DNA of 64,000 bases from an uncultured bacterium (GTDB lineage Bacteria > Patescibacteriota > Minisyncoccia > UBA6257 > 2-01-FULL-56-20). A program made the position numbers and the translations under genes. A model generated the notes under the pieces. The model was not told the origin of the DNA. It ran no database searches and worked only from the letters and a program-made list of their open reading frames with translations. Below are positions 4,347 to 23,444 of the stretch, piece by piece. Where the stretch lies: assembly GCA_963705915.1 (NCBI GenBank), contig OY970126.1:232306-296305 (forward strand), in the 5' to 3' direction. Position 1 is the stretch's first letter. The number at the start of each line of letters is the position of its first letter.

Positions 4347-4805
4347 TTGTCCAGAAGTTTTGACTGGAGAAAGTTCATGACAGGAAGTTCTCGCTTAGCG
4401 TTGGATGCACTTGCCTTGGTGCAGTGTCTTTTCGCCTTACTCACTGGTTTCTATGGCTTTGTGCTGACGCGTCAAGGAGAAATACGATGGCGGGTATCGA
4501 GCGTCAACGATCATCGCAGCTCAGCCATAGGCCTTGCCTTCGTCGCGGTCGCTGCGGTAATAATCGTTGAGGCCGTACTTCTTCCCCATTCTGTACGACT
4601 TGTGCACACGCGACTTTATTGGTTCAATTTCGCCGTGAGCATAATCGGTATCGCCTCTTATGGTACCGCCGCATACTTTAACCCTGAGAGACGTTCCGAT
4701 CTGAAGAAGCTCCATCATGTTTGCGGTCGAATTGCCTGCGCATCTGCTGTCGTCGTAGCCTATAATGGATATCTCTTTTTAGGCCGCATTCCCCCGCTCA
4801 CGTAA
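4347..4805 (+). CDS. hypothetical multi-pass (about 4 TM) membrane protein
   Basis: Four well-formed hydrophobic segments with charged loops; stop codon embedded in a strong plus-strand terminator hairpin. Confidence 0.4.
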   Translation: MSRSFDWRKFMTGSSRLALDALALVQCLFALLTGFYGFVLTRQGEIRWRVSSVNDHRSSAIGLAFVAVAAVIIVEAVLLPHSVRLVHTRLYWFNFAVSIIGIASYGTAAYFNPERRSDLKKLHHVCGRIACASAVVVAYNGYLFLGRIPPLT

Positions 4806-4829: not shown

Positions 4830-5572
4830 ACCTGAATCTTCGAGAAGAAATAGCTGCCGAGTCCAAGGAAGACAATGGTGACTCCTGCGAGCACGATAAA
4901 GTCGACTCCTAAGCCGAAGGTCGTTGTGTTGAGGATGATTGCGCGGAATGAATCGACACCGTAGGACAACGGATCAAATTTTACGATTGCGCTGAGGGCT
5001 GCAGGAAGGCCTCCGAGCGGGAAAAGAGCGCCGGAAAGGAAAAATAGTGGCTGCACAAGGAAGTTCATAATCAATTGGAAGCCCTGCATATCTTCGAGAA
5101 GCGAAGCGATCATGGTGCCGAGTGCCGTGAAGAGCATGGCGACGAGCAACATGAAGACGATAAGTAACGGGACGAGCGCCCAGTTGTACGGAAGTACGCC
5201 AAAGAACAACGTTATGATAAAAACGATAAGTCCTTGGATTGTCGCGACCGTTGCGCCACCGAGTGTCCGGCCAATCATGATGTTTGTGCGTGAAACCGGC
5301 GCGACCATCGTTTCTTTTAAAAATCCGAACTGACGATCCCAGATGAGTTCAATGCCCGAGAAAATGGCCGTGAAGATGATGCTCATGCCGATCACGCCCG
5401 GTGCCAGGAAGTCGAAATAATTCCCCTGCCCCGCTGCTTTAAAGACAGACCCCAAACCGTAACCGAGGGCAAGTAAGAAGAGGATCGGTTGTCCGAGTGA
5501 GCCAACGATACGAGACTTTGAGCGGATATAGCGCTTGAGTGCGCGGAGCCAAAGGATGTAAATAGTTTTCAT
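4826..5572 (-). CDS. ABC-2 family transporter permease
   Basis: 6-TM profile, ABC-2 type permease architecture, immediately downstream of ABC ATPase. Confidence 0.8.
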   Translation of the reverse strand: MKTIYILWLRALKRYIRSKSRIVGSLGQPILFLLALGYGLGSVFKAAGQGNYFDFLAPGVIGMSIIFTAIFSGIELIWDRQFGFLKETMVAPVSRTNIMIGRTLGGATVATIQGLIVFIITLFFGVLPYNWALVPLLIVFMLLVAMLFTALGTMIASLLEDMQGFQLIMNFLVQPLFFLSGALFPLGGLPAALSAIVKFDPLSYGVDSFRAIILNTTTFGLGVDFIVLAGVTIVFLGLGSYFFSKIQV

Positions 5573-8066: not shown

Positions 8067-8780
8067 ATGATCGATGTCCGCGACCTCCGAAAAGATTACA
8101 GCGAAGACGGTGAAGTGACGACGTCGGCGCTTCGCGGTGTCACCTTCACTATTAACAAAGGAGATTTTGTCTCGATCATTGGCCCCTCCGGGTCCGGCAA
8201 ATCAACGCTGCTCCAAATTCTCAGTTTTCTCGACCGACCGACGGGAGGCAGCTACACGTTTAACGGCAAAGGCATCGGGGAGATGTCCGATCTGGAGCTC
8301 GCCCATGTGCGCAACAAGCAAATGGGGTTTGTGTTTCAGGCATTCAACCTCCTTTCGCGCCTCACCGTTTATGAAAATGTTGAAATTCCATTGGTCTATT
8401 CGACCGTCGATCCGACGGAACGAAAAAAACTCATCGAGGAAGCCGTCCGATCGGTCGGCCTCGAAGAGAAGCTCTACGTCGAAACGGGCAAACTTTCCGG
8501 CGGACAAAAACAGCGTATCGCGATCGCCCGAGCGCTCGTCAATAACCCCGACATTATTTTTGCCGATGAACCGACGGGCAATCTCGACTCGAAATCCGGC
8601 GCCCAGGTGATGGATATTTTGGATACTTTGAACCATCAGGGCCATACCATTGTTCTTGTGACCCATGAAACTTATACGGCTGAATTTGCAGATCGGATCA
8701 TCGCGCTCCGCGATGGCATGGTTGAGAGCGATAAACCCGTGAAAAATCCGCGACACTCAAAAGATCAATTCTTTAAGTAA
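8067..8780 (+). CDS. ABC transporter ATP-binding protein, MacB/LolD family
   Basis: [38 protein letters not shown]; start overlaps adaptor stop. Confidence 0.9.
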
Positions 8781-8793
8781 TACTATCAAGACT

Positions 8794-10038
8794 ATGAAGC
8801 TCAGCGATTCAATTAAATCAGCGCAAGCGACGCTCAAGCACGGCAAAACCCGTTCGTTTCTTACCATGCTTGGCATCGTGATCGGCATCGCATCGGTGAT
8901 TATTCTCATGTCGATCGGCCAATCGGCACAGGATCTCATTTTGAATCAGGTGCAAGGCATCGGTTCGAATCTTATTTTCATTCTTCCTGGCGGCACGAAT
9001 GGTAAATTTCAATCCCCTGCTGCGGCGCAAGGCGTTGTGATCAAGACGCTCGTGCAAAGTGACGTCGATGCATTGTCGCGCGAGCCTTCGATCAGCGGTG
9101 TCGCACCGATCGTGAACGGCCAAGCGAATGCAGTCTATGGCGACAACAACCTGAGCGTTACCTATCAGGGTGTCACAGGCAATTTCTTTGCTATGCGTAA
9201 TTATACCGTCGTAAACGGCTTTCCATTCACCGATCAGGACGTGGACGCCTATAACGACGTTGCCGTGATCGGAAGCGACCTTGCAACAACACTCTTTGGC
9301 CCGAACATTAATCCAGTCGGCAAAGATTTTCGGCTGGGCAATATCACCTATCGTGTTGATGGTGTCTTGAAGCCAATGGGTATTGGGCCTGGCGGCGTGA
9401 ATCAGGACGACTTGGTGCTCATCCCGATCACCGTCGCGCAGAGCCAGATGCTTGGCATTAACTATTTTCAGTATGTTCTCGTCGAGGCGAATCCTGATTA
9501 CAATATTTCATTCGTGACATCGCGGATTGAGTCTGTGCTTGAACAGGATCACGGCATCACCGACCCCTCGCAGGATGATTTTACCATCGAAACACAGCAG
9601 GATGTATTGGCGATTCTTGGCAGCATCACATCAATCCTCACGATTTTCCTTACCGCAATCGCTTCGATATCGCTTGTCGTAGGAGGTATTGGCATCATGA
9701 ATATCATGCTTGTATCGGTTATCGAACGTACCCGAGAAATCGGATTGCGAAAAGCCGTCGGCGCAACCGATGGCGATATCATGCAGCAATTCCTTGTCGA
9801 GTCCGTAATGCTTACGTTTGTCGGCGGCATTATCGGCATTGCCATTGGCGCTATATTTGTGACGCTTGTCTATCTCGTCCTCGTGCATTTCACGACCGTT
9901 GCATGGGTATTCGCCTTCCCACTTTCAGCGGTCATTATTGCGGTCGTTGTTTCAACGGCGACCGGTATCGGTTTTGGTATCTATCCGGCCCGCCAAGCAG
10001 CGCGCAAAAGCCCGATTGATGCGCTTCGCTACGAATAA
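8794..10038 (+). CDS. ABC transporter permease, FtsX/MacB family
   Basis: N-terminal TM + large periplasmic domain + C-terminal 3-TM FtsX-like domain (ERTREIGLRKAVGAT). Confidence 0.85.
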   Translation: MKLSDSIKSAQATLKHGKTRSFLTMLGIVIGIASVIILMSIGQSAQDLILNQVQGIGSNLIFILPGGTNGKFQSPAAAQGVVIKTLVQSDVDALSREPSISGVAPIVNGQANAVYGDNNLSVTYQGVTGNFFAMRNYTVVNGFPFTDQDVDAYNDVAVIGSDLATTLFGPNINPVGKDFRLGNITYRVDGVLKPMGIGPGGVNQDDLVLIPITVAQSQMLGINYFQYVLVEANPDYNISFVTSRIESVLEQDHGITDPSQDDFTIETQQDVLAILGSITSILTIFLTAIASISLVVGGIGIMNIMLVSVIERTREIGLRKAVGATDGDIMQQFLVESVMLTFVGGIIGIAIGAIFVTLVYLVLVHFTTVAWVFAFPLSAVIIAVVVSTATGIGFGIYPARQAARKSPIDALRYE

Positions 10039-10044
10039 AAAAAC

Positions 10045-10371
10045 CTAGCCTTCTTCCTCTTTGTCCTCGCTTTCCGCCATTTTATCGAGGCTTTTTTTCG
10101 CGATAATCTTCATGTCCCGCTGAATTCGGTCCCATGCGTTTTTCATCTCTTTGCCGGCACGGATCACGTCTTTGATGGCTTGCTTTCGGGCGGCGCGGAT
10201 ATCATCGCCGTCGTCAAAAGTCCCATCTTCAGCTTGGGCTGCCGTCCGCATTTTTTCTTTCATGAGTACATAGGTCGCGCCCATACCAGCGACGGCACCG
10301 ATTGCCATCAAGCCTACCCCGATTTTTAAAGCTGATTTTATTGGATTAAGCATGCATTGTACTACGCGCAA
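10045..10371 (-). CDS. hypothetical small membrane-anchored protein with charged C-terminal tail
   Basis: TM segment IGVGLMAIGAVAGMGATYVLM followed by Lys/Asp/Glu-rich helix. Confidence 0.4.
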   Translation of the reverse strand: MRVVQCMLNPIKSALKIGVGLMAIGAVAGMGATYVLMKEKMRTAAQAEDGTFDDGDDIRAARKQAIKDVIRAGKEMKNAWDRIQRDMKIIAKKSLDKMAESEDKEEEG

Positions 10372-22779: not shown

Positions 22780-22844
22780 GAGTTCATTTTATCATTTTGT
22801 GCGCAGGCGTGGACGCCTTTCAAACTTCGCCTTACAACAACGCC

Positions 22845-22876: not shown

Positions 22877-23071
22877 ATGAGAAAGCGAGGTTTTATGTAC
22901 GAGTGTCACTGCCCTTGTCACGGAAAGAATGGCGTAGGCATAGCGGACCATTGCAGGCCTTGTTGCGAGCTGTGTCCCCATTGCCACACCAACATCATGA
23001 TTGGATGCATGGAAGCGCACCTCAAAGAAAGTCATCCCGGCGTAGACGCGTCAGCCGTTTTCCCGAGCTAG
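22877..23071 (+). CDS. putative Cys/His-rich small protein (64 aa; 9 Cys, 7 His), possible metal-binding peptide
   Basis: ORF bracketed by candidate promoter and strong Rho-independent terminator 38 nt after stop; sequence YECHCPCHG...HCRPCCELCPHCH. Confidence 0.3.
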   Translation: MRKRGFMYECHCPCHGKNGVGIADHCRPCCELCPHCHTNIMIGCMEAHLKESHPGVDASAVFPS

Positions 23072-23108
23072 CAGCGGAAGCGGCGAAGAAGCCTTCGTAT
23101 CGACCAAA

Positions 23109-23140
23109 TCGACGATTCCGTTATCGTCGATTTATTTTTT
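23109..23140 (+). terminator. Rho-independent terminator (8-bp stem TCGACGAT/ATCGTCGA + TTTATTTTTT)
   Basis: Perfect 8-bp stem, 6-nt loop, 10-nt T-rich tract. Confidence 0.6.
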
Positions 23141-23144
23141 CATC

Positions 23145-23160
23145 GTGCGCAGGGCAGGAT
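23145..23160. repeat. 16-nt exact direct repeat of the tRNA-Tyr 3' end (GTGCGCAGGGCAGGAT; second copy 23318-23333 inside the tRNA)
   Basis: Exact 16/16 match in the same orientation, 157 nt apart; looks like an att-site duplication. Confidence 0.6.
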
Positions 23161-23161
23161 G

Positions 23162-23315
23162 GCGCGTAAGAACGCGCGGAATTGGTTCGCTCGGAGAAAA
23201 TACAATCTTCCATTCTATTTTCTCCTCGCTGCCAATTCCCGAACCCTGAAGGGTTCTCATCCCGCCTTCATACGAGCAACAAAAATGAATGTCTTTTAGA
23301 CATTCATTTTTGTTG
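23162..23315. repeat. highly structured 154-nt tRNA trailer: four consecutive hairpins including a perfect 17-bp palindrome abutting the tRNA 3' end
   Basis: H1 23162-23177 (GCGCGT/ACGCGC), H2 23178-23239 (GGAATTGG...CCAATTCC with inner 10-bp stem), H3 23241-23256 (GAACCC/GGGTTC), H4 23277-23315 (CAACAAAAATGAATGTC-ttta a-GACATTCATTTTTGTTG). Confidence 0.7.
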
Positions 23316-23400
23316 TGGTGCGCAGGGCAGGATTCGAACCTGCGTAGCCCATTGGGCGACAGATTTACAGTCTGTTGCGATTGGCCGCTCCGCCACCTGC
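23316..23400 (-). tRNA. tRNA-Tyr(GTA), class II with long variable arm, CCA encoded
   Basis: Minus-strand sequence GCGCAGG...anticodon loop CUGUAAA...long variable arm...TPsiC GGTTCGAATCC...CCTGCGC-A-CCA; 7-bp acceptor stem. Confidence 0.85.
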
Positions 23401-23444
23401 GCAGAGCAATATTGTTATACTATGTTTCCGAAAAATACGGAAGG

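Follow-up and report, generated by a model that had tools for sequence, protein, structure and literature searches.

The tRNA-Tyr gene of a 64-kb stretch of DNA (64,000 nt, hereafter the window) from an uncultured bacterium of the Paceibacteria (contig OY970126.1, positions 232,306 to 296,305) is followed by a trailer whose last nucleotides repeat the tRNA 3' end exactly. We consider it likely that this trailer is a divergent RtT-like tRNA-linked repeat unit, related to the Escherichia coli tyrT/tyrV repeats. The kind of element is a known one; the variant and the host lineage are new. RtT-type repeats were first seen behind E. coli tyrT/tyrV, where one unit corresponds to the 171-nt rtT (rttR) RNA, and have been a curiosity of E. 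coli tyrT since the late 1970s; the original descriptions are said to be those of Egan and Landy in 1978, Rossi et al. in 1981 and Bosl and Kersten in 1991. The corresponding Rfam family is centred on enteric and related Gammaproteobacteria. An earlier note on this DNA had hesitated between an integration or deletion scar, a transposon-like insertion and a structured RNA module carrying a copy of the tRNA end. It is the last of these that our analysis bears out, with a conserved, covarying and strand-specific structure that appears homologous to the RtT units of E. coli tyrT.

The tRNA-Tyr(GTA) gene lies on the minus strand (23316..23402; ARAGORN, 60.6 bits with the Rfam tRNA model) and encodes its CCA. 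The 16-mer GTGCGCAGGGCAGGAT, which on the tRNA strand reads ATCCTGCCCTGCGCAC / AUCCUGCCCUGCGCAC, is present exactly twice in the 64-kb window, in the same orientation, and both positions given in the earlier note were recovered. The proximal copy (23333..23318, minus strand) is made up of the last 16 nt of the tRNA before the final CA. It starts with the last two bases of the T-loop, runs through the 3' strands of the T-stem and of the acceptor stem, and ends with the discriminator A and the first C of CCA. The distal copy (AUCCUGCCCUGCGCAC, 23145..23160, minus strand) matches it exactly and is followed by GA, where the tRNA has CA. Dinucleotide shuffles failed to reproduce the repeat (0/100 yielded two or more matches to the 16-mer, even with 2 mismatches allowed). 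The repeat period is 173 nt, and 157 nt separate the copies (23161-23317), not 154 as first counted; 155 of them are past the encoded CCA. A Logan short-read contig from run ERR11523672 (L104, equivalent to window 23347-20285) is 100% identical across the element and, since it derives from an independent assembly, indicates that the element is not an assembly artefact.

The RtT-like unit proper, i.e., a scaffold plus the tRNA-end copy, extends over 23145..23266 and begins 50 nt past the tRNA-Tyr CCA, on the same (minus) strand. Its limits come from the minimum free energy (MFE) fold, from the consensus fold of 11 copies described below and from a covariance model (CM R1). In the MFE fold a 9-bp helix, P1, pairs the 5' strand GGCGGGAUG (23266-23258) with the 3' strand CAUCCUGCC (23161-23153) and encloses three hairpins in a four-way junction: H1, GAACCC-UUCA-GGGUUC (23256-23241); H2, a long hairpin with CAGCGA/GAGCGAA internal loops (23239-23178); and H3, GCGCG-loop-CGCGC (23177-23162). 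Downstream of P1 only the single-stranded tail CUGCGCAC remains (23152-23145). The fold has an MFE of -70.2 kcal/mol (z = -8.4 against shuffled controls), and the whole region including the tRNA reaches z = -11.0. The first 8 nt of the distal 16-mer belong to the P1 3' strand and the last 8 nt form the unpaired tail. The P1 5' strand is therefore antisense to the T-stem 3' strand of the tRNA, and the copied acceptor 3' strand is left free.

Between the tRNA and the unit there is a perfect hairpin, which begins directly behind the CCA and has a loop of 3 nt (23277..23315, minus strand; inverted-repeat search). The palindrome noticed before at this place is thus real and perfect, with the correction that its arms measure 18 nt (23277-23294 / 23298-23315) instead of 17 bp. 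Likewise, the four hairpins counted in the trailer do exist, but they do not simply follow one another, since the 9-bp helix encloses three of them. The post-CCA hairpin is laid out as A-tract, stem and U-tract (CAACAAAAAUGAAUGUCU AAA AGACAUUCAUUUUUGUUG) and is probably the intrinsic terminator or attenuator of the tRNA, or a processing stem. A simple terminator scan did not flag it because its T-run sits within the extended stem. Homologous hairpins with compensatory changes were found in four related loci (L045, L016, L020 and L065; loci are cited by their L numbers), and relatives without the RtT-like unit also have a terminator hairpin after tRNA-Tyr. From this hairpin the linker CUCGUAUGAA (23267..23276, minus strand; delimited by alignments) leads to the scaffold.

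The same scaffold appeared in 10 further copies in related Paceibacteria genomes of the Candidate Phyla Radiation (CPR), behind tRNA-Tyr or tRNA-Met. These A-type copies are in L016 (two), in L020, L045, L058, L065 and L075 behind tRNA-Tyr, in L053 behind tRNA-Met, and in L051 and L086. L016 and L020 were located solely through the synteny of EF-Ts, while L045, L058, L065, L075, L053, L051 and L086 were added by a pattern scan of metagenomes, in which most of the 52 matches were chance or coding sequences and were discarded. The linker (C)TCGTATG is conserved among the A-type copies linked to tRNA-Tyr. Related units of different build were also present: a B type (two copies in L022, one each in L031 and L035) and a C type (L084) behind tRNA-Tyr, and others behind tRNA-Arg (L046, L067) and tRNA-Gln (L048, L095). 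Two units are found in L022 and L067 and, putatively, in L046, and L016 has two with cargo between them.

In these relatives the tail tracks the tRNA. Exact copies of 11-20 nt of the local tRNA end close 14 other tRNA-linked copies, and the tRNAs matched include tRNA-Tyr with three different acceptor stems, tRNA-Met, tRNA-Arg(TCG), tRNA-Arg(CCT) and tRNA-Gln. The 3' repeat of L016 and L020 is the end of their own tRNA-Tyr, which differs from that of the window in the acceptor stem, and the tail of L053 equals the end of the local tRNA-Met. The repeat ends ~155-220 nt past the tRNA end across the CPR, proteobacterial and E. coli loci. Relatives that keep the trailer but lack a 16-nt repeat had been named in the earlier note as an observation that would refute its reading; the comparison of the tRNA flanks gave the opposite, a trailer with a repeat matching its own tRNA. 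Two loci deserve mention on their own. In L046 (8287-10237), an RtT-like unit (8384-8506) comes after tRNA-Arg(TCG), and the tRNA 3' end recurs once more, exactly, ~190 nt further on (8684-8702). A gene called as a CCA-adding enzyme (8618-10237) starts 112 nt past the unit and spans this second copy, so that a second full unit is putative. In L053 (1250-1620, minus strand), the hairpins before and after the unit look alike by eye (AACAGCAAAAGCACCGA... vs AACAAAAGCATCGAC...), which hints that the duplicated segment once took in the tRNA terminator as well as the 16-mer.

The RtT-like unit is a conserved, covarying and strand-specific structure. All 11 A-type copies fold independently into the P1/H1/H2/H3 junction, with P1, H1 and the base of H2 near-invariant and with compensated variation in H3 and the H2 tip. 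H3 covaries as GCGCG/CGCGC, GCUGA/UCAGC, GCGGA/UCCGC and GCAAA/UUUGC, and four further pairs of the consensus fold show double changes. When read on the tRNA strand, the 11 copies have 9 G.U pairs versus 2 A.C pairs. Strand specificity is also clear with CM R1, built from the 11 CPR copies only (that of the window included), that gave 122-143 bits in sense and 32-44 bits in antisense, ~90 bits apart; for the window copy, the minus strand scored 122 bits and the plus strand 35 bits. The same ~125-nt scaffold is shared by genomes whose EF-Ts proteins are 73-81% identical, and its DNA identity between genomes (0.74-0.92) is higher than that of the EF-Ts gene (0.68-0.81) and of the adjacent flank (0.51-0.64). 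An antisense function, such as a tRNA 3'-end complement of the primer-binding-site kind, was considered and rejected: wobble pairs and CM scores both point to the tRNA strand, and the complement of CCA is not conserved.

The relation to E. coli was examined in both directions. CM R1 matched all four E. coli RtT units, full-length and on the right strand, with 24.6, 22.7, 22.0 and 14.5 bits (E = 5e-4 to 0.13 in 32 kb with filters off; E-values are rough here and for the reciprocal model below, both models having been quickly calibrated). In a larger search of 427 kb the top three units had E = 0.006-0.026 and the fourth was not listed. Apart from the A-type copies themselves and one higher-scoring hairpin in L009, the E. 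coli units were the top matches of this model. The reciprocal model, CM R2, was built from the four E. coli units only and matched L048 (52 bits), L020 (24 bits, E = 0.0016), L016 (21 bits) and L058 (20 bits); the sibling copies of the window unit fall at 20-24 bits with E from 0.0016 to 0.014. With the Rfam RtT model (RF00391), the E. coli units score 133-138 bits and the tRNA-Gln-linked copy of L048 47.7 bits, the gathering threshold being 45 bits. L048 has the neighbourhood lolB-ispE-tRNA-Gln-prs-ctc-pth-ychF, a gene order that we take to be gammaproteobacterial, of the Pseudomonas type. The L009 hairpin (5466-5520, minus strand; GGCAGCGAGGA...GACGAACGAACC; 38 bits with the CPR model) is a lone H2-like hairpin placed directly after EF-Ts.

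The anatomy agrees as well. In the E. coli K-12 tyrT locus, the order is tyrT, one RtT unit, tyrV and three RtT units, the first of which is annotated as rttR and has the tpr ORF (open reading frame) inside. Each E. coli unit starts with GGGGAAGGAUGAGAAGCUUCGACCAAGGUUCGA and ends with AAUCCUUCCCCCACCACCA, which equals the final 19 nt of tRNA-Tyr, and the units recur every 178 nt. Both the window unit and these repeats lie directly 3' of a tRNA-Tyr gene on the same strand, have similar lengths (173 nt in the window, 178 nt in E. coli) and are closed by an exact tRNA 3'-end copy (16 and 19 nt, respectively). In both, P1 is formed by a 5' GG..GGAUGAGAAC segment and the copied 3' strand of the T-stem, and is followed by GAUGAGAAC, H1, a multibranched interior and a free acceptor-strand 3' tail. 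The corresponding sequence is GGCGGGAUGAGAACCCUUCAGGGUUC in the window and GGGGAAGGAUGAGAAGCUUCGACCAAGGUUC in E. coli; also shared are GGAUGAGAAC, the H1 sequence GAACCYU...AGGGUUC and the CAGCGAG.../...GCGAA loops, and P1 and the motif fall at the same positions in the Rfam RtT consensus. There are also differences. E. coli has tandem units (3.14 copies) while the window has a single one, although tandem units exist in its relatives. The body is a neat four-way junction in the window, with a long H2 and a T-arm-like H3, and the branch pattern in E. coli is different. The 18-bp hairpin between tRNA and unit has no equivalent in E. coli, the window copy ends in ...GCAC-GA without CCA, and the host is a member of the CPR with a genome of ~0.83 Mb instead of a gammaproteobacterium. 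Nor is a tpr-like ORF conserved. In E. coli, the motif GGAUGAGAAC includes the ATG at which the protamine-like peptide Tpr starts (L098 1177), and in the window a 42-aa ORF starts from the equivalent ATG (23260). Most CPR copies have AUA or AUC there; the ATG within GGATGAGAAC reads ATA or ATC in 6/11 copies, for which reason a conserved Tpr-like peptide was discarded.

Several observations weigh against an RtT-like identity. The window copy went unreported by RF00391 at E <= 10, in searches of both 901 nt and 156 nt. On the window, Rfam gave only the tRNA and chance matches of the microRNA type, at gathering as well as at permissive thresholds, and no family matched the copies of the CPR relatives. 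The E. coli-only model CM R2 gives the window copy just 9.4 bits (E = 1.3 in 64 kb), with an alignment that is nonetheless full-length and at the right coordinates. Because of this low score, the homology of the window copy with RtT is transitive, through its siblings and the shared anatomy. The metagenome scan pattern forced GGAT..GAAC, GAGCGAA and CCTGCC, so that these motifs suffer from ascertainment bias in the sequences that came from the scan, a bias absent for E. coli and for L016/L020. The scaffold has been kept but the tail lost in L065 and L084, and the tail of the second copy of L067 mismatches its tRNA. The unit is separated from the tRNA by a strong hairpin, and the interval from that hairpin to P1 has no called promoter-like site.

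A resemblance to other tRNA-derived RNAs should also be considered. As in the tRNA-like domain of transfer-messenger RNA (tmRNA) or in the bacterial Y-RNA-like YrlA, features of the T-arm and of the acceptor 3' strand are copied, and in the B-type relatives the two halves of the tmRNA domain have look-alikes in GGAUUCGAAC (5' end) and GUUCGACUC (3' end). The unit differs in having no acceptor 5' strand, and so no stem that could be aminoacylated, and no reading frame for a tag; neither ARAGORN nor the Rfam tmRNA models gave a tmRNA match. A second tRNA or an intron-containing tRNA was discarded together with tmRNA, as ARAGORN found only the tRNA-Tyr. Bridge RNAs (IS110), omega-RNAs (TnpB) and integron attC sites came to mind because the RNA carries both target-identical and target-complementary segments. 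These analogies were rejected: no matching protein gene was seen close by in the examined loci, and RtT homology explains the anatomy.

The main rival to the RtT-like unit is a scar of the attL/attR type or a cis-mobilisable mini-element (CIME). A tyrosine integrase aimed at the T-loop or 3' end of tRNA genes would have brought in an element with a tRNA-end copy of its own, and the 157-nt segment would be what is left of it, or what an integrase supplied in trans still moves. We regard this as unlikely, and it is kept alive by the variability of the locus and by the cassette-like genes of relatives. The gene order S2, EF-Ts, small membrane protein and tRNA-Tyr is conserved in ~30 species representatives, and the interval from tRNA-Tyr to RecO is a variable hot spot, with 537 nt in the window and >4.5 kb elsewhere. 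In relatives it holds cassettes, each closed by a conserved motif resembling the tRNA 3' end, and RtT-like units can flank cargo, as in L016. One scaffold sits behind both tRNA-Tyr and tRNA-Met, and the nearest relatives (87-89% EF-Ts identity) lack the unit; no empty site was found in them, their flanks being too diverged to align with the post-unit flank of the window. As at attL/attR sites and CIMEs, the segment is bounded by direct repeats of the tRNA 3' end from the T-loop on and the tRNA stays intact; such repeats starting in the T-loop are, reportedly after Williams in 2002, the classic footprint of integrases. Against all this, neither integrase nor recombinase was found between or beside the repeats in the window and in the examined loci, 11 metagenome loci among them being inspected by their ORFs. 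For the window, ORF lists and Pfam agree with the earlier note that the repeats enclose no integrase or cargo. The sole recombinase seen was a XerC/D-like gene in L046, 2.2 kb away. The cargo genes are NUDIX, ASCH, SET and DUF488, and L016 and L045 have cargo without a recombinase. No counterpart of the element was found among IMG/VR viral contigs, INPHARED phages and PLSDB plasmids, and viral, phage and plasmid searches with the cassette-end motif gave no match either. What the repeats enclose is a structure of constant size, conserved, covarying and strand-specific, unlike a random deletion remnant, and the E. coli homologue is a transcribed tandem repeat without integrase. Moreover, if the crossover took place in the T-loop, an element that went from tRNA-Tyr to tRNA-Met would have had to bring the right acceptor strand along. 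With the same ~125-nt scaffold recurring, no integrase and no phage, plasmid or viral match, an att or deletion scar is not supported as the primary explanation. If site-specific excision did take place, it would leave circular junction reads with the ATCCTGCC...-tail joined to the hairpin side.

The repeat could also have arisen as a target-site duplication of 16 bp, by insertion at the tRNA 3' end of a non-autonomous element similar to a miniature inverted-repeat transposable element (MITE) or a casposon. The segment between the exact copies is indeed short and non-coding, the tail usually agrees with the local tRNA as a duplicated target would, and casposons are said, in work by Krupovic et al. 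and by Beguin et al. in 2016, to make duplications of 14-16 bp at tRNA 3' ends. We nevertheless find this origin very improbable. A MITE fails on two counts, since the inter-repeat ends (CACAACAAAA... and ...CGCGCC) are not terminal inverted repeats and no second copy of the element is found elsewhere in the 64-kb window. In addition, genes for Cas1 or a transposase were not seen, the units of E. coli are arranged in tandem, head to tail, and the P1 5' strand pairs with part of the supposed duplication, from which it follows that the repeat is structurally integrated into the unit. A further proposal is that the trailer is a by-product with no selected role, made of tRNA terminator hairpins and a duplication of the tRNA end by chance or slippage. 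The first hairpin is indeed terminator-like and also present in relatives that lack the unit, short direct repeats promote local duplications, and close relatives manage without the unit. But a scaffold that is better conserved between genomes than the coding DNA of EF-Ts, with flanks at background level, compensatory changes in H3 and H2, and a family recognisable from CPR bacteria to E. coli are hard to reconcile with a lack of function, and we give this proposal little credence.

For the RtT-like unit, the behaviour of E. coli offers a model. There, one of the repeat units of the tyrT operon is rttR (PMC3318445). RtT RNAs are set free from the transcripts of tRNA operons and are visible on Northern blots in Actinobacillus/Pasteurellaceae (PMC4986893; bioRxiv 10.1101/2024.07.17.603846). 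A discrete stable RtT RNA derives from the tRNA primary transcript in E. coli and Actinobacillus (PMC3318445, PMC4986893), and a connection of these RNAs with amino-acid limitation (PMC4986893; bioRxiv 10.1101/2024.07.17.603846) and with the stringent response (PMC4986893) has been described. By homology with E. coli, the window unit would be transcribed from the tRNA promoter by read-through of the post-CCA hairpin and then excised as a discrete stable RNA; we propose that this happens because its 3' terminus resembles a tRNA end to the enzymes that trim 3' ends. The released molecule would imitate the 3' half of a tRNA whose partner strand is missing and, as in E. coli, might act as a small RNA. 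A promoter of its own was looked for and not found: none was called, and the -35/-10 candidates found by hand inspection were inconsistent among copies. The 16-nt repeats, 173 nt apart, would permit duplication or precise loss of the unit by replication slippage or unequal recombination, and the same exchanges may keep tail and tRNA end identical. Tandem arrays, an uneven presence among close relatives and tails that track the host tRNA would all be accounted for in this way. The lack of the unit in the closest relatives fits such gain and loss, and, if slippage is at work, alleles differing by exactly one 173-nt unit should exist.

Overall, the evidence suggests that the copied tRNA end has a function within the RNA and is not a footprint of recombination. 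A bolder idea, which we hold as rather doubtful, is that RtT-like units are ancient RNAs that mimic the tRNA 3' half, present from CPR to Gammaproteobacteria, and that they attach to tRNAs with T-arms of the GCAGG/CCUGC type, the antisense segment and the tail being functional guides. Within this same tentative idea, template switching or recombination at the T-arm might spread the unit and re-match it to new tRNAs, in a protein-free process reminiscent of homing. Alternatively, the RNA might act in trans on the processing, surveillance or starvation response of its cognate tRNA. The cases of L086, with a tRNA-Tyr tail, and L053, with a tRNA-Met tail, that have the same scaffold and an identical H3 hairpin, are compatible with a tRNA mimic or guide. 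In any case, a recognisably homologous RtT unit in Paceibacteria genomes of ~0.8 Mb, which have shed most non-essential sequence, and the presence of units with tracking tails behind several tRNAs, provide a comparative handle on the old RtT problem. They also delimit an invariant core: P1 on the T-stem copy, GAUGAGAAC, H1 and the GA-rich H2 loops. For annotation purposes, it is advisable to compare any direct repeat of a tRNA end with 150-180 nt between its copies to RtT before an att site is assigned.

Around the unit, the window neighbours (ORF list and Pfam) are RecO, EF-Ts, a DUF11 protein and two ORFs without match. This EF-Ts equals, at 100% identity, a protein from an 827-kb contig, and the names of its relatives (Paceibacterota/Minisyncoccia) put the organism in the CPR. 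An 11-bp hairpin with A-run and T-run flanks lies just past the unit (23106..23133, either strand; inverted-repeat search, with a terminator-like site called on the plus strand). It is a neighbour of the repeat unit, outside it, and terminates the convergent plus-strand small Cys-rich ORF; it is also a possible minus-strand terminator of the RtT-like unit, and a terminator hairpin likewise follows most RtT-like copies at other loci. The ORF in question (22877-23071, plus strand) codes for 64 aa rich in Cys and His, converges on the unit, and has no Pfam match and no homologue among the fetched loci; it may be lineage-specific cargo of the variable interval. In relatives, the motif that closes the small gene cassettes between tRNA-Tyr and RecO is AAATAGGTTCGAACCTGGTCCGATACCCCGCAC, of ~33 nt and similar to a tRNA T-loop plus 3' end. 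It was located in L016 (6559-6591, 7727-7760 and 8406-8438), L020 (6255-6287), L004 (7050-7082) and L010 (10393-10425). The cassettes contain a 141-aa ORF without Pfam match, ASCH, SET and small membrane ORFs, with no integrase seen among these, and stacked in this way they look like an integron-style array anchored on the tRNA gene. In the window itself, a degenerate third copy resembling the tRNA 3' end, GTTTGAAAGGCGTCCACGCCTGCGCAC, is found just upstream of RecO (22799-22825, minus strand); its last 9 nt are those of the tRNA-Tyr end, and a close relative has a clear homologue, CGTTCGAAGATCGTCCAGGCCCGCGCAC (L100, ~4350-4385). This degenerate copy overlaps a promoter-like site for RecO.

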